A model generated the notes under the pieces. It was not told the DNA's origin. It was given only the letters and a program-made list of their open reading frames with translations, and made no database searches. A program made the translations under genes and the position numbers. A DNA stretch of 64,000 nt, from assembly GCA_038246775.1 (NCBI GenBank), contig JBBRVO010000001.1, positions 44,728 through 108,727 on the forward strand, written 5' to 3'. This DNA comes from Peptostreptococcales bacterium (GTDB lineage: Bacteria > Bacillota > Clostridia > Peptostreptococcales > Acidaminobacteraceae). How positions within the stretch are numbered: position 1 is the first letter of the stretch; each line of letters starts with the position of its first letter. Positions 20,261 to 33,673 of the stretch are shown here, in pieces.

Positions 20261-23200
20261 ATGATCAGGATTGTATATGGAAAGGCCAAAAGTGGAAAAA
20301 CCCATCAAATCTATTCCGAAATTCATGAAGCGGCACGTCGATGGACGCAAAAATCTCATAAAGGTGCTTTGTATCTGATTGTGCCTGAACAATACACGCT
20401 CGAGGCAGAGAAACAGTTAATTGAACACGAAAAATCTGAGGGGTTTATAGGCATTGAAGTCGTCAGCTTCAAAAGGTTGGCGCATAAAGTGTTTGCTGAA
20501 ATTGGTCAACCAGAAGGGGTACGCATCTCTGAAATCGGAAAGATCATGATGCTCAGACGGCTGTTTGCTGCGTCGCAAGGTGCCCTTACCGTCTATCAAA
20601 GTGCTTACAATAAATTGGGGTTTTTATCGAAAGTTCACGATTTGATTAAAGAATTTAAACAAAATATGGTTACTCCAGAGGCGCTAAATCAAATGATTGA
20701 GGCTATCGAAGACCAGTCACTTCTAAAAAATAAACTTAAGGACTTCAGCATCGTGTATCAGGCCTATGAAAATGAAAAGGCAAAAGACTATTTTGACGAT
20801 GAAGATTTTTATACGACGTTGCTTGAAACGTTGTCAAACTCACAAAATTTGAAACACGCAACGATTTGGATTGATGGCTTTGACAGTTTTACGGTTCAAG
20901 AGCTTCAGATTCTCTCTAAGCTATCCACTTTAGCTGCGTCTATGAGCATCACCCTTTGTACCGATGGTGCAAGTCTGTCGAATCATTTTGACCACACGAA
21001 TACGCTTCTTAGCCGTTTAACGGAAATGGCTCATGATAATGGCATCGCACTTAAAACAGAACTTTGTGAGAGACCATTTCCCTCACCAGATATTTTGCAT
21101 ATTGCTGAAAATCTTCTGGCTTATCCGTATACAAAAAAAGCCATCGACCGTGAATCGGTTGAAATATTCGTGGCGGATAATCGATTGGATGAAGTGGAAT
21201 ACTGTGCGACAAAGATCGTTGACTTAGTGAGACATGGCGGTTACGACTGGCAAGATTTTGCCGTCGTAACCAATGACCTCGATGCCTATGCTATGAACAT
21301 CAAACGCATCTTCGGTGAATTTGAACTGCCGTATTTTCTCGATCAAAAGCGTCAAGTGGCCAATAACCCTGTGGTGCATTTCGTCAAATCTTATCTACGC
21401 ATGTATTCTGAAGGCTTTTCAACCGAACAGATGGTAAATTTTTTAAAGACGGGGCTCATAATAGAGGATGCACTCGCCATTTCTCGTTTCGAAATATATG
21501 CCAAACAGTATGGTGTCAGAGAGAAGAAACTGATGCGTGTATTTGAAATTAAAGGTAAGGACCTTGAACCTGAAAATGCCGTCAGAGAAACCTTGGCATC
21601 ACTGATTATGCCCGAGTTCAAAAAAAATAAACTGCTGGTGCGCACAGCTATTGAAAAGTTATTTGACGTACTAATGACGCTCAAAGTCAATGAGAAAATC
21701 GATGCACAGGTAAAGGCTTTCACAGCATTAGGCAAACATGATGAGGCGCAACAATTCGCTCAAATTTGGAACAAGACGATGGATTTGTTTGACCAACTCG
21801 TTGAGCTGATGGGTGATGACGTTTTATCCATCGAGGAACTGGTAGAAGTCGTCGAGTCCGGTTTTGAAACAACTGAAGTCGGCCTACTGCCACTAAGTGA
21901 CTCGCAGATTCTCGTGGGGTCCATTGACCGTTCAAGGGCTCATCCGATTAAGGTTTTATTTTTTCTTGGTCTCAATGATGGCATCGTTCCTGAACTAGGT
22001 AACGACAAACAGTTGATCCTCGATTCAGAAAAGGCGATTTTCACTGAAAAAGGGATTAAATTATTAGCGGACAGTCAGATGTTTGTGAGCAAAGAGCAAT
22101 TCAACCTGTATTTTGCCATGACCAGACCTACAGATAAACTCTATTTTAGTTATGCGCGTTCCGACTCGGAGGGACGTGCCTTAAGACCTTCCTATTTCAT
22201 CAACAAACTTTCTAGGATTTCAAGCACTATTAAAACGATAGATGCACGTGTGACGCAAGAAGCGTTGACATACCTTGTATCCACTGCAAAAGGCACAATC
22301 AAGCATATGGCCATTGAAATGCGGCGTGCCGTCGATGGTTATCCGGTTTCAACGGATTGGGAGTCTACGTTCGCCTGGTATGTTCAGAATGAACGCCAGA
22401 CCGCCAATCTGTTGATCAGGGGGCTAACGCATACGAACATCGTTGAAAAACTCAGCCATAAAGCGGTTATGGCGGCCTATGATTTGCCCATTAAAACGAG
22501 CGTTTCAAAATTGGAACGCTATGTCCAGTGTCCATTTAAATATTTTGTAGAATCGGGTCTGAAACCAATCCCGCAAAAAAACTATGAACTGGGTGCACCC
22601 GATGTTGGCATCTTGTTCCACAGTGCACTTGAACATTTTGGGAAGACGATTTTTAAAGAAAACATCGAGTGGCGGACACTCACAAAAGATAGAAGCGATG
22701 CCATGATGGAAACGATTATCAACACAATCACGGATGTTGAAATCTATCAATCGAGGTTTCAATACCAATATATGATTAACAAACTGAAACGCGTTTCTAA
22801 AAAAGCCGCATGGACACTGACTGAGCAGCTTAGCAGTGGCACCTTCGTGCCAGCTGCCTTCGAAGTTGCCTTCGGTGATGGACCGGAGAGCGTTGCCCCA
22901 ATCTTAGTGGCACTTTCCAATGGCGAACGGCTATTAATCAGAGGCGTCATCGATCGCGTGGATACAGCCCTTATTGATGGAAAACAATACGTCAAAATTA
23001 TCGATTATAAATCCGGTCGAAAATCATTGAGTTTGTCTGATATTTACAATGGCCTTCAAATGCAGTTGATGGTGTACTTAAGTGCCTGCTTGGACAACCC
23101 CCAATACTTTAGGGTGCCTGAGATTGCACCTGCGGGTGCATTCTACTTTAAAATAGATGATCCCTTCATTGAGTCAACTGAGCAAGTTGAAGCAATCATT

Positions 23201-29551: not shown

Positions 29552-31309
29552 TTATAACAGATTGTCCAAAGAAGAATTGACGATAGGTGTAGAGTCAGCT
29601 GTAACCTCTAACGGTTCGGTGACTTTAATCACTGGAAGGAACAAAGTGAAAGTGGTGCCTTCATCGATAGCACTATCAACATGAATTGTACCACCGTGTT
29701 GCTCAATGATAATCTTTGCAATAGAAAGACCTAAACCCGTGCCGCCATGTTGATTTTCTTTCATCTTTGTTCGAGATTTATCTGCGCGATAAAAACGGTC
29801 GAAGATGTGCGGCAAGTCTTCTTTTGAAATACCAATGCCGTCATCCGAGATAACGACGATGGCGTGGTTTTCAGAGCGCCTTAAAGAAAGTGATAGCTTT
29901 CCGCCATCAGGTGTATATTTGATACTGTTGTCAATGAATATTCTAAGCGCTTGCTTTAACTTGTCTGATGAACCATGAATCGAGAGGTTCTGATCGATCG
30001 TCTCACTGATGTCATGCTGTGAGTCGATCAAACGCGTTTCCTTGACGATTTCGGTAAATAGTTCGGTGAAGCTGAAGGGTACTTTGTCCATTTTTAAGGA
30101 ACCCTTATCGTTTCTTGCGATAAACAATAGGCTTTCAACCAAACTGTGCATATTATCTGTCTCACTTAAAATAGCATGAATGCTTTCTTCTAGAATTGCA
30201 GGGTCGTCTTTACCCCATCTATTGAGCATGCCAGCATAACCTTTGATGACGGCGATAGGGGTTCTCAGTTCATGAGAGGCATCTGAAACGAATTGTTTTT
30301 CACGTTCATAACTTTTTTGAATGTCGTTGAGCATCTGATTAAACGTCAAAGCAAGGTCTTTAAGTTCATCTTTTGTTCCGCTCACATTTAAGCGCGTACT
30401 TAAATTGTTGCCCGACATATCCTTCACTTGTTCGGTCATGACCTTTATTGATTTAAGATGTTTGTTTGCCATCTTTGATGCCGATCGAATCGAAGACAAA
30501 ATGAGAACAAAGCAGAGAACAAACCCTATAGGAAAGGTGGCTTCCAGTGTATTTGTATGTTTAGTCAATTCGGTTTTGACGGCGTAATAGATAAGTGTAT
30601 TATCGTCGAAGATCATTGAACCCGTTTCAAAGAGCATTGGAAAGTTCGGAAAAATTCTAAAATCGTATTCGACGACAGTGGACGCCTCTTGATAGCTCAA
30701 ACCGTCATCTGAAGTGGCATATAGTGGCGCCTGTTCAGCATTGTACACATATAACTGTAAGTTGTTTTGATTCAAATAGGTATCAATAGATTCTGATTTG
30801 AAATCTTGTGACGAAGTGAGCATGGATTCAATATAGATTCGGTCGTTTTTCAAATCCTCTTGTGCATTATAGAATAAATAATAAGCAAAAGAGACGTAGA
30901 TAAAGAAAAACAAAAATGTGATTAAAAATAAGAGCCGGAGGGCATAGCCAAGCGTCAATTTAAATGTGATATTGAATCGAATCAATGAAATAAAGCGATC
31001 ATAGGTCGAAGAAAAATAAGATGATTTTTCTTGCTCAAGGGGTTCACGTCTCTTAGTAACATTTTCTGCTTTTGTACGCTTGACCTCTTTTGGAATCGCC
31101 ATCTTGGCTGTGTTTGTTTTCTCAGTTGTCTTCTTGACAACGACGCGTTTAGCATCTGAACTTAAGCCATCTTCTCTTCTAGAAGGGACTTTTTTATTTG
31201 TACTGCTTGAGGCAACTCGAGACTTCTTTGATGGTGCAGGTTTTGCACTAGGCGTCGCGTTGACTCTAGATTCAGTTTTTTGGCCGGTTTCCTTACTTAT
31301 TATCTTCAT
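29552..31309 (-). CDS. Sensor histidine kinase (HAMP-HisKA-HATPase) with a long basic N-terminal extension
   Basis: FVSDASHELRTPIAVI, DNSIKYT, DDGIGI and GGTGLGL, with two TM helices after about residue 110. Confidence 0.93.
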   Translation of the reverse strand: MKIISKETGQKTESRVNATPSAKPAPSKKSRVASSSTNKKVPSRREDGLSSDAKRVVVKKTTEKTNTAKMAIPKEVKRTKAENVTKRREPLEQEKSSYFSSTYDRFISLIRFNITFKLTLGYALRLLFLITFLFFFIYVSFAYYLFYNAQEDLKNDRIYIESMLTSSQDFKSESIDTYLNQNNLQLYVYNAEQAPLYATSDDGLSYQEASTVVEYDFRIFPNFPMLFETGSMIFDDNTLIYYAVKTELTKHTNTLEATFPIGFVLCFVLILSSIRSASKMANKHLKSIKVMTEQVKDMSGNNLSTRLNVSGTKDELKDLALTFNQMLNDIQKSYEREKQFVSDASHELRTPIAVIKGYAGMLNRWGKDDPAILEESIHAILSETDNMHSLVESLLFIARNDKGSLKMDKVPFSFTELFTEIVKETRLIDSQHDISETIDQNLSIHGSSDKLKQALRIFIDNSIKYTPDGGKLSLSLRRSENHAIVVISDDGIGISKEDLPHIFDRFYRADKSRTKMKENQHGGTGLGLSIAKIIIEQHGGTIHVDSAIDEGTTFTLFLPVIKVTEPLEVTADSTPIVNSSLDNLL

Positions 31310-31982
31310 CTTTAAATAAATAGCCTACCCCTCTAACGGTATGGATAAATTTAGCACTAAAACAATCGTCAATTTTACTTCTAAGATAACGTATATAAAC
31401 GTCGACAATTTTCGTTTCTCCAAAATAGTCGTAGCCCCATACTTTATCTAAAATCTGTTCACGTGTCAGCGCTATGTTTTTGTTTTCAGCTAGATAGTGT
31501 AAAAGATCAAATTCTGTTTTTGTGAGTTCAATGGTGGTTTGATCGTAATAGGCAGTATATTGGTTGTAATCGATTTTGAGCTTGCCCGAAATGAATGTAT
31601 TCGTATTGACCGCCTGATGTGCGCTCGCTTTTCTGAAAATTCTACGGATGCGTGCTAACAGTTCTTCAATAGCGAAAGGCTTTGTCATATAATCATCAGC
31701 ACCAAAATCGAGGCCAATGACTTTATCCATGATATCGTCTTTTGCAGTGAGCATGATAATGGGAATTTCAGAGTTCAAACGAATGCGTCTACAAACTTCC
31801 ATGCCATTCAAACCGGGTAGCATTATATCGAGTACAATTAAATCAAAATCCCCTTCAAGTGCTTTATCGAGACCTGTTCTACCATCATTTGCCGTTTCAA
31901 CCGAAAAACCTTCATGATTCAATTCGAGTTCAATAAACCTTGCGATTTTAAGATCATCTTCTACGACCAGTATTTTTTGCAT
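31293..31982 (-). CDS. OmpR-family response regulator (ArlR-like)
   Basis: ILVVEDD, LDIMLPG, GADDYMTKPF and VDVYIRYLRSKI...TVRGVGY. Confidence 0.95.
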   Translation of the reverse strand: MQKILVVEDDLKIARFIELELNHEGFSVETANDGRTGLDKALEGDFDLIVLDIMLPGLNGMEVCRRIRLNSEIPIIMLTAKDDIMDKVIGLDFGADDYMTKPFAIEELLARIRRIFRKASAHQAVNTNTFISGKLKIDYNQYTAYYDQTTIELTKTEFDLLHYLAENKNIALTREQILDKVWGYDYFGETKIVDVYIRYLRSKIDDCFSAKFIHTVRGVGYLFKDEDNK

Positions 31983-32123: not shown

Positions 32124-32630
32124 TTATGCCATACGATCTTCATCTTCTTTTCTTTCAGTTTTTGTCGCGTCATCATTACGGAAAGCTTTCTCAAAATCCA
32201 TGTTTTTACCTTCGCTATCTAAGATGGAAATTTTAAATCCAAATAGGTAAGGGAGGATTAATAGGAACATCGATACTGGCATTGTAAATAGGATGAGTAA
32301 TGCGGCAATGGTCAATGGAATATCTAATACGCGTTTTGATTTGTTGCCAATAACAAAGCTTGTCTTATGCATTTTTGCGAAGAATTTTCTGACGTCTTCA
32401 AAGAAGTCGTTATCTGGTTTGCTGTTTCTTCTTGAGTGACCATCGGGTCTCGGCGTATTTCTAACGGGCCTTTGACCAGGTTTTGTATAAGCTGTCTTAT
32501 TTGATGCTTCAAGGGATATAAGGGCTTCTACCATATCGCCATCGTGTTGCTCCAAGGCTTCTTTTGCTTCTTTGTAGCTTATGTTAGCTCTTTCCATGAG
32601 CATATCGATTTTTTCTAAACTTACTGACAT
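32124..32630 (-). CDS. DUF4342-like protein with N-terminal UBA/NAC-like helical domain (paralog 1)
   Basis: MSVSLEKID.LMERANISYKEAKEALEQHDGDMVEALI.LE, then a LDIPLTIAAL hydrophobic hairpin. Confidence 0.75.
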   Translation of the reverse strand: MSVSLEKIDMLMERANISYKEAKEALEQHDGDMVEALISLEASNKTAYTKPGQRPVRNTPRPDGHSRRNSKPDNDFFEDVRKFFAKMHKTSFVIGNKSKRVLDIPLTIAALLILFTMPVSMFLLILPYLFGFKISILDSEGKNMDFEKAFRNDDATKTERKEDEDRMA

Positions 32631-32738
32631 TTGAATGCCTCCTCTAATTTTCTTTTTATTTTATAAAGTTGATGTTAGTGAAAGTGTACCAAATCTATCT
32701 TAAATACCAACCAAGGAATGGTTAGAATTTGGATAGAA

Positions 32739-33215
32739 TTATTGATTTTTAGTATTTGTATTTGTGCGGTTCTTGATCCAGGCGTCAACATCTGTAACGT
32801 TTCCGTTTTCACGGTGGATTTGAAGCTTGATGCCAAAGAAAAATGGAACAACTAAGACGATGATGGACAAAGGAAGCGTCCAAAGGGCGATGATAGCGAC
32901 GATGAGTAGCGGCAGTTCCAGTACAGCTTTGTCATCTTTCTTCCATATAAGCTTGATGCGCATCATTTTTTTTAAAACTTTCATACCTTGATGTCCCCAA
33001 AATTTCAACTGGGACTCAAAGGCGTTCTTTTTTGCATCAAAGGATTCTTGTTTTTCCTTCTTAGCATCCTCAGCTGTTTTGCTTGAGTTTTGTTCTATTC
33101 TGATGATGGCTTCAACGACATCGCCGTCACACGCTTCAAGCATGACTTTTGCTTCTTTGTAGCTAACTTTTGTTCTATCGATTATTTTCTCGATGTTTTC
33201 AAGTGTTACTGACAT
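32739..33215 (-). CDS. DUF4342-like protein with N-terminal UBA/NAC-like helical domain (paralog 2)
   Basis: MSVTLENIEKIIDRTKVSYKEAK.MLEACDGDVVEAII.IE and LELPLLIVAI. Start at 33215 after an AAAGGAGG RBS; the ORF track extends to 33278. Confidence 0.75.
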   Translation of the reverse strand: MSVTLENIEKIIDRTKVSYKEAKVMLEACDGDVVEAIIRIEQNSSKTAEDAKKEKQESFDAKKNAFESQLKFWGHQGMKVLKKMMRIKLIWKKDDKAVLELPLLIVAIIALWTLPLSIIVLVVPFFFGIKLQIHRENGNVTDVDAWIKNRTNTNTKNQ

Positions 33216-33385
33216 ATCATAGCCTCCTTTTAGTGAATCAATTGATTTGAACTCATTATATCTCGGGTTCATTAACATGAAACCAATGAACGGTTAAAAA
33301 TCAGATAGAATCCACTTAGTGAATGACTCATTTTTAAATGTTACAGAAGCGTAAGCCTGATTAATGAATGTTAACAGTATATCTA

Positions 33386-33414
33386 TTGACTCAAAAGTTA
33401 GCAAATGATATTAT
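33386..33414 (+). promoter_or_regulatory. Sigma-A-type promoter of the candidate sRNA
   Basis: TTGACT-17 bp-TATTAT. Confidence 0.7.
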
Positions 33415-33420
33415 CATAGT

Positions 33421-33527
33421 CGTTGACAGGTAATACGATTGAATTACAACTTGATTTACATTTATCCCCCCTTTATTAATAAATGTAAATTGTCAATTCC
33501 GGCGCACTGAGGTGCGTCTTTTTTTTT
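33421..33527 (+). ncRNA. Candidate trans-acting small RNA with a C-rich loop
   Basis: Own promoter upstream, no ORF, a 12-bp hairpin (33454-33465/33479-33490) with loop CCCCCCUUUAUUA, a closing stem ttgaca/tgtcaa, and an intrinsic terminator (ggcgcac-tgag-gtgcgtc plus T9). Confidence 0.6.
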
Positions 33528-33552
33528 GCTTATAATGGTAAAAAATGTAAAC

Positions 33553-33581
33553 TTGACATTTGTCTTAAAAGACAATAAACT
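33553..33581 (+). promoter_or_regulatory. Sigma-A-type promoter of the MFS-acpS unit
   Basis: TTGACA-17 bp-TAAACT, downstream of the sRNA terminator. Confidence 0.6.
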
Positions 33582-33673
33582 TAATGCAACAAGCATTCAT
33601 CTAGCTAAAGAAGCCTTTGTTTTGAACGTGTATATAAACAAATATTTAACCCTCAACCTATTAGAAAGGCAAT

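Follow-up and report, generated by a model that had tools for sequence, protein, structure and literature searches.

An unpaired UCCC or otherwise C-rich motif is a documented hallmark of the small RNAs that block Shine-Dalgarno (SD) sequences in low-GC Gram-positive bacteria (PMC4132741; PMC3091779; PMC10433868), and LhrC, RsaE, RNAIII, SprD and FsrA all block translation through SD pairing (summarised in PMC4132741). The CU-rich, UCCC-type motif of LhrC base-pairs with target mRNAs at the SD region, and LhrC itself is controlled by the OmpR-family system LisRK through an element upstream of -53 (PMC4132741). RsaE/RoxS are trans-acting RNAs whose unpaired C-rich regions pair with G-rich ribosome-binding sites (PMC10433868). 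The csRNAs of streptococci are short RNAs complementary to the SD sequence and the AUG, and their promoters carry the CiaR repeat TTTAAG-N5-TTTAAG (PMC3091779).

The stretch of DNA analysed here (64,000 nucleotides, hereafter the window) comes from a draft clostridial genome of 2.8 Mb with 40% G+C. Regulatory RNAs are poorly charted in Clostridia beyond a few pathogens. The sequence reading, the predicted fold and a covariance model together point to an ORF-free small RNA (sRNA) of about 107 nt, encoded by a gene that is single-copy in this genome (Table 1). On balance, we favour the view that it is an independently transcribed, trans-acting regulatory RNA that would pair with G-rich SD sequences. 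If confirmed, it would be an independent case of the SD-blocking C-rich loop, extending this design from Bacilli to environmental Clostridia.

The predicted RNA resembles LhrC1-5, Rli22 and Rli33-1 of Listeria monocytogenes, which are likewise stand-alone RNAs of about 110 nt with an intrinsic terminator and a C-rich motif in a hairpin loop. The parallel with LhrC and LisRK extends to an OmpR-family two-component system in the sRNA locus (in four genera) and to phased repeats upstream of the -35, from which a similar control may be suspected. It differs from LhrC in lacking sequence or covariance-model similarity, in having one C-motif instead of three and a single copy instead of five, and in occurring in Clostridia instead of Listeria. 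An unpaired C-rich region conserved across genera also recalls RsaE/RoxS of Staphylococcus and Bacillus, with anti-RBS pairing being a prediction in the present case. Those RNAs have several C-rich regions and are confined to Bacillales, whereas the window RNA has one C-run and only its homologue in genus g7 has two; the RsaE covariance model gave no match at the gathering threshold or at E <= 10. The csRNAs hold their anti-SD/anti-AUG stretch single-stranded between two stem-loops, unlike the hairpin loop and 5' arm used here. Their CiaR repeat replaces the -35 (NTTAAG-N5-TTTAAG, 10 nt upstream of the -10), whereas the present promoter has repeats with a 10-bp period and an intact -35, and genus g34 does not preserve the anti-AUG spacing. 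An unpaired C-rich motif, here predicted to bind SD sequences, is shared with the UCCC-motif Rsa RNAs and RNAIII of Staphylococcus aureus and with FsrA of Bacillus subtilis, which are unrelated in sequence and size and are experimentally validated, whereas the window RNA is a prediction.

Table 1. Features of the sRNA locus, in window coordinates.
Feature	Position	Strand	Description
Histidine kinase	29552-31309	-	sRNA locus
Response regulator, OmpR-family	31293-31982	-	sRNA locus
UBA-like/DUF4342 membrane proteins	32124-33215		two tandem paralogues (~33% identical), upstream of the two-component system
DUF4342 start codon	33215-33213	-
DUF4342 promoter TATAAT	near 33257-33262	-
DUF4342 promoter module	33281-33311		AACC (33281-33284)-N7-GGTT (33292-33295) ... 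CAGATAGAA; also read as inverted repeat plus CAGATAGAAT (33302-33311)
Four phased (T/G)TA(A/C) repeats	33341-33374	+	TTAC 33341, GTAA 33351, TTAA 33361, TTAA 33371
Sigma-A type promoter	33386-33414	+	-35 TTGACT 33386-33391, 17-nt spacer, -10 TATTAT 33409-33414
Predicted sRNA transcript	33421-33527	+	promoter-to-terminator reading; covariance model R1
5' UUGACA	33423-33428	+	pairs with UGUCAA 33491-33496 in the minimum-energy fold
Core hairpin	33453-33491	+	A/U-rich stem of 12-13 bp, loop CCCCCCUUUAUUA (33466-33478)
Hairpin 5' arm	33454-33465		ATTTACATTTAT
Hairpin loop	33466-33478		CCCCCCTTTATTA
Hairpin 3' arm	33479-33490		ATAAATGTAAAT
Candidate seed, CAUUUAU + CCCCCC	33459-33471	+	invariant; C-run (candidate anti-Shine-Dalgarno) 33466-33471
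Intrinsic terminator	33501-33527	+	stem 33501-33518, 9 T 33519-33527
Antisense of seed	33462-33485	-
44-aa ORF	33462-33596	-
MFS gene promoter	33553-33581		TTGACA-17-TAAACT
Inverted repeat in MFS promoter spacer	33560-33575		TTGTCTT-AA-AAGACAA

The 5' end of the putative transcript was placed at 33419-33422 from promoter geometry, and its 3' end lies inside the T-run. The -10 is of the extended type, with a TG at 33406-33407 (TGn), and the promoter matches the consensus at 10 of 12 positions. The terminator consists of a G+C-rich 7-bp stem with a loop of 4 nt followed by nine U, and in three genomes its stem shows one compensatory pair (C-G to U-A). Folding of the single sequence gives -25.6 kcal/mol on the plus strand (z = -3.3 against shuffles) and a weaker fold, without a U-tail, on the minus strand (z = -1.7). 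A sequence-only reading of the window had described the promoter, the hairpin with its enclosing stem, the nine-T terminator and a second promoter beyond it, and our inspection and scans recover every one of these elements at the same coordinates. It had also called the transcript ORF-free, and indeed no ORF on either strand is conserved across the sRNA in the homologous loci compared. Consensus scans by themselves show no excess over chance in the sRNA region, where this A+T-rich DNA holds 12 promoter-like sites against 11.6 expected and 5 terminator-like sites against 2.3 expected. What lifts the observation above chance is conservation: genera that differ in promoter spacer and flanks still share both hexamers, the hairpin and the terminator.

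Two covariance models were used to establish the distribution of the RNA: R1, built from ten same-genus copies (alignment A1), and the hairpin-only model R2 (alignment A4). R1 matches the window at 33418-33526 with 128 bits. BLAST and R1 find exactly one copy in all ten genomes of the same genus, and R1 finds one copy in five of the six genomes of the sister genus g6 (E ~1e-17); the E-values across both genera range from about 1e-17 to 1e-23. Contigs from SRR19962012 and SRR19962013 also contain the locus. In the same-genus alignment (10 genomes) both hexamers, the whole RNA and the terminator are near-invariant, in contrast to the promoter spacer and the surrounding intergenic DNA, which are diverged or unalignable. 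Weak R1 matches together with R2 reveal distant homologues in genera g34 (3/3 genomes), g35 (3/4) and g42 (4/4), and also in g36, g38, g7, g12 and g16, which brings the genomes with the RNA to 25 or more. Each of them combines a strong sigma-A promoter (often with TGn), a C-loop hairpin and its own terminator, which is found in the same place and is unrelated in sequence. R1 has no match in the 133 genomes searched outside the family, which represent eleven further families of the order, and the R2 matches in these same genomes were rejected as antisense of genuine ribosome-binding sites or as hairpins without a C-run. The RNA appears to be restricted to one family of Clostridia, in which it occurs in about ten genera, roughly one third of those sampled. 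A simple pattern, ATTGAA-N-CATTTATCCCCC, was too unspecific for the contigs, the matches listed having arisen by chance.

The sequence-only reading had suggested comparison with Rfam, and this comparison turned up no known family: Rfam 15 gave no relevant match for the whole window at the gathering threshold, for the locus at E <= 10, or for nine homologous loci. The sole weak match, TarB (E 0.16), covers the terminator alone. A full-text literature search found no paper on small RNAs in the window's genus. We conclude that this is a new RNA family, absent from Rfam, of a familiar regulator kind. It is cleanly defined: it has a usable covariance model, its range is clear at about ten genera of a single family, and a natural loss variant exists. 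This variant is the disrupted copy in the g6 genome G014 (L012 1375-1552), where the -10 and the 5' end are absent and a deletion fuses the loop (CCCCCTTTTATAA) to a second TTGACAGGC site, having removed the 3' arm along with the terminator and the MFS gene. The TTTTGACAGGC site joined in this way lies after the MFS gene in sister genomes.

The core hairpin is made of 12 A-U/G-C pairs and a closing G-U pair (G33453 with U33491). The sequence CAUUU and a run of at least five C are invariant in all 18 distinct sequences from seven genera, and likewise in the additional genera contributed by R2. The minimum-energy and centroid structures computed for the window RNA and four distant homologues all leave the C-run unpaired. 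Among 17 distinct hairpin sequences, 99.5% of the stem cells are standard pairs, and none of 500 shuffles equalled the observed covariation score of the stem; sliding the partners by 1-3 columns as a control lowered pairing to 32-49%. Compensatory double changes at stem positions 2-5 were counted by hand in three lineages, g38 included (UUUAC/GUAAA to AUUAC/GUAAU, CUUGC/GCAGG and UAAUC/GAUUG), so that the covariation which the sequence-only reading had named as a check is found in the lower stem. The 3' arm opposite CAUUU takes A-to-G wobble substitutions while CAUUU in the 5' arm stays unchanged, and this asymmetry points to a constraint on sequence beyond pairing. The lower stem is therefore structural, and the upper 5' arm and loop are constrained in sequence.

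The outer stem is less uniform. The minimum-energy fold pairs the 5' UUGACA as given in Table 1, and the alignment fold favours another pairing, GAUUGA (33437-33442) with UCAAUU (33493-33498); both partners are invariant, and within the genus two alternative pairings are possible. UUGACA belongs to a (Y)GUUGA motif at the 5' end that most genera retain, and in g42 the conserved 5'-terminal GUUGA is predicted to form a separate 5' hairpin. The outer stem is not a feature of the family. In the g7 homologue (G015, L214, ~22155-22249), two C-loop hairpins in tandem, UAUUUAUUCCCCUUUAUAUAAAUG... and UUACAUUUAUUCCCCCCCCGUUAUAAAUGUA, share a single promoter-to-terminator unit, and the seed module is thereby duplicated.

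The anatomy of the RNA is like that of sRNAs with C-rich motifs, and the window genome contains both hfq and genes with G-rich SD sequences: 137 of about 2950 crudely called genes (~5%) have a run of at least five G within 20 nt of the start codon. For these reasons we take anti-SD pairing as the likeliest mechanism. A strong sigma-A promoter, possibly modulated by the phased TTAA array, would drive a transcript that ends at an efficient terminator and folds with the invariant C-run unpaired in the loop of an A/U-rich hairpin. The C-run and adjacent nucleotides would then pair with SD sequences of the GGGGG or GGGGGG type, and this pairing, which Hfq may assist, would block ribosome loading and probably destabilise the mRNAs concerned. 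Any C-rich loop scores against SD sequences, and complementarity alone proves little.

In the sequence-only reading, a segment of the RNA was the exact complement of an idealised SD-spacer-AUG region, a view that three results weaken. Genome-wide, the idealised target (GGGGGATAAATG / GGGGGAUAAAUG) is found nowhere but on the antisense strand of the gene itself. In two g34 genomes no nucleotide separates CAUUU from the C-run, which implies an SD-AUG spacing of 2 nt; such spacing is too short for initiation, and the anti-start-codon reading therefore cannot be general. We regard pairing with the AUG as a doubtful detail. The AAAGGGG sequence proposed as a partial match within the window is indeed present before the CBS gene (start 17672), but its duplex energy, at the 14th percentile genome-wide, is unremarkable. 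Ranking of duplexes over the genome gave a broad list with no outlier and no perfect target. Target prediction, likewise proposed at the outset, yields many G-rich SD sites but no significant conserved target. The top duplex match, a cdaR-like gene (C64), was discarded, as its G-run is not kept in the genus. The best in-genus candidate is spoVG, which carries AGGGGGAUAAA in 9/9 genus genomes, and in g34 the spoVG spacer varies in step with the sRNA; it was rejected as a general target, the complementarity being lost in g6, g38 and g42, all of which bear the sRNA.

We also performed a CopraRNA-style ranking over two genomes, using 957 ortholog pairs defined as reciprocal best hits, with G075 (g36; 2.4 of 3.12 Mb, 77%) as the second genome. 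Twelve of the 957 pairs reached a combined rank of <=1e-3 against 7.6 expected, which is not a significant excess. The leads in this ranking are hfq, Opp-like solute-binding lipoproteins, nhaC and a GntR regulator; the enrichment of lipoproteins is weak and exploratory (5/15 in the top 100, p = 0.014). The start region of hfq reads GGAGGGG in G000 (C2:90405-90593, L218) and GGGGGGAUGAUUAAAUG in the G075 orthologue. Its duplex ranks in the top 2% in G000 and in the top 0.6% in G075, and is first with a loop-only seed, although none of this is significant after multiple testing. From these start regions, a feedback loop between hfq and the sRNA may be envisaged.

The main rival to SD pairing is a protein-binding role, in which the RNA would act as a sponge or scaffold whose invariant CAUUU(AU)YCCCCC on an A/U-rich stem is recognised by a KH-domain protein of the KhpA/KhpB type, by Hfq or by SpoVG. 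We consider this unlikely. In its favour, the upper 5' arm is invariant in sequence despite being paired while its 3' partner drifts, the two-genome ranking holds no significant conserved mRNA target, and the two tandem C-loop hairpins per transcript in one genus are reminiscent of multi-site sponges. It is the otherwise unexplained invariance of CAUUU that keeps this role in its position as main rival. Speaking against it, most genera have a single binding module, no gene for a partner protein is consistently linked across all genera, and the pairing shown so far for C-rich loops in Firmicute sRNAs is with SD sequences (PMC4132741).

More improbable is that the locus is a conserved DNA or RNA element without a stable RNA product, such as a protein site or an insulator or terminator, with a promoter that is weak or silent in vivo. 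A convergent HD-hydrolase gene that ends about 80-90 nt downstream of the sRNA in several genomes would fit such an element, yet every genus has kept a near-consensus extended -10 promoter, always on the same strand and with a varying spacer, and the stem covariation is of the RNA type, G-U pairs included. Moreover, the terminator has its U-tract solely on the plus strand, and the convergent gene in G007 has a terminator of its own.

In the window the sRNA lies 146 nt upstream of the MFS gene and in the same orientation, which raises the question of a cis-acting leader, attenuator or riboswitch working by conditional read-through of the terminator. The gene downstream varies between genomes of g1 and g6: it is an intact MFS gene in some, a pseudogene of two short MFS fragments beside an intact sRNA in the complete genome G009 (L134 1784-1986), and, in G002, G005, G007 and G008, where the MFS gene is deleted and the sRNA element is unchanged, a SpoT-like HD hydrolase in convergent orientation with acpS behind it. 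In g34, g35 and g42 the sRNA follows psuK-psuG and precedes bioY-bioB or tkt. The MFS gene, for its part, has its own conserved promoter after the sRNA terminator, inspection of the window sequence revealed no segment able to pair with the 5' arm of the terminator as an anti-terminator, and there is no match to an Rfam riboswitch. A leader or riboswitch role is excluded by the changing downstream genes, together with the efficient terminator and the MFS gene's own promoter, and we regard this reading as largely refuted and its residual probability as very small. The claim of the sequence-only reading that this is a stand-alone unit is upheld, the sRNA being retained where the MFS gene is absent, broken or replaced by a convergent gene; with its own promoter and terminator, the unit is independent of its neighbours. 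If confirmed, the sRNA would improve the annotation of an intergenic region otherwise read as an MFS leader.

Equally improbable is a feature of the minus strand, either a start-stop mini-ORF (AAAGGGGGGAUAAAUGUAA) or an antitoxin to a type I toxin encoded by the 44-aa ORF, for although a perfect SD, spacer, AUG and UAA can be read on that strand, and an antisense ORF of 44 codons, hydrophobic at its start, overlaps the RNA, the ORF has no SD sequence and is missing in the other genomes (an absence on which the toxin-antitoxin candidate was rejected), the AUG is followed by a stop, a short ORF or a long ORF depending on the genus, the promoter, terminator polarity and fold z-score favour the plus strand, and R2 gives 64 bits on the plus strand against 29 bits on the minus strand.

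Several observations at the locus stand apart from these readings. The antisense of the seed is a textbook initiation site followed immediately by a stop, and by its sequence an inverted ribosome-binding site may have given rise to the hairpin. The perfect inverted repeat in the spacer of the MFS promoter looks like a candidate repressor operator, and the MFS promoter sequence is still present in G002 despite the deleted MFS gene. The HD protein is a SpoT/RelA-type protein of 178 aa (small alarmone-hydrolase-like), found at loci L138, L139, L140, L143, L134 and L149. Its gene is convergent to the sRNA in five genus genomes and is near the sRNA again in g34, which makes it an old syntenic neighbour of the sRNA; the window lacks the gene at this position.

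Turning to the regulation of the favoured SD-pairing RNA, four phased repeats precede its promoter with an exact period of 10 bp, the last one ending 11 nt before the -35. The array is kept in 15/15 genomes of g1 and g6, is recognisable in g34, g35 and g42, and travels with the sRNA when psuK-psuG splits it from the DUF4342 cluster. Phased repeats of this layout are typical of winged-helix response regulators. The array is a candidate binding site for an activator of the response-regulator type, or else a UP-like element. A search of the window genome for a regulon found the motif to be unique, so that no regulon can be derived from it. Comparison of the promoter by eye with consensus motifs for BirA, Rex, WalR and ECF sigma factors gave mismatches in register or spacing and showed no palindrome of the Rex type.

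Four genera encode an OmpR-family regulator in the sRNA locus. In g1 and g6, the sRNA gene faces away from a divergent cluster that encodes UBA/DUF4342 membrane proteins (one or two), the OmpR-family response regulator and the histidine kinase. Control of the sRNA promoter by this response regulator is a hypothesis. A tentative extension, which we hold to be possible but on the unlikely side, is that the RNA forms the post-transcriptional arm of a two-component circuit of the envelope-stress type, in which the regulator of the locus would bind the TTAA repeats and activate the sRNA, and the sRNA would mimic the 16S anti-Shine-Dalgarno and silence mRNAs with G5-6 ribosome-binding sites (e.g. 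those of solute-binding lipoproteins, hfq and spoVG). Such a circuit would be an independently arisen clostridial counterpart of LisRK-LhrC and CiaRH-csRNA; if confirmed, the locus may add a further pairing of a two-component system with an sRNA.

The divergent DUF4342 gene has a promoter module of its own, which is conserved in g1 and g6 and is probably an operator for a regulator. In g34 and g35 the DUF4342 cluster lies about 2.3 kb from the sRNA, with psuK-psuG inserted between them, and there the module stays with the DUF4342 gene and not with the sRNA. In this arrangement two regulatory modules, joined in the window, come apart. Of the two DUF4342 paralogues, the 'a' copy alone is present in some genus genomes (G005 and G007) and in G069.
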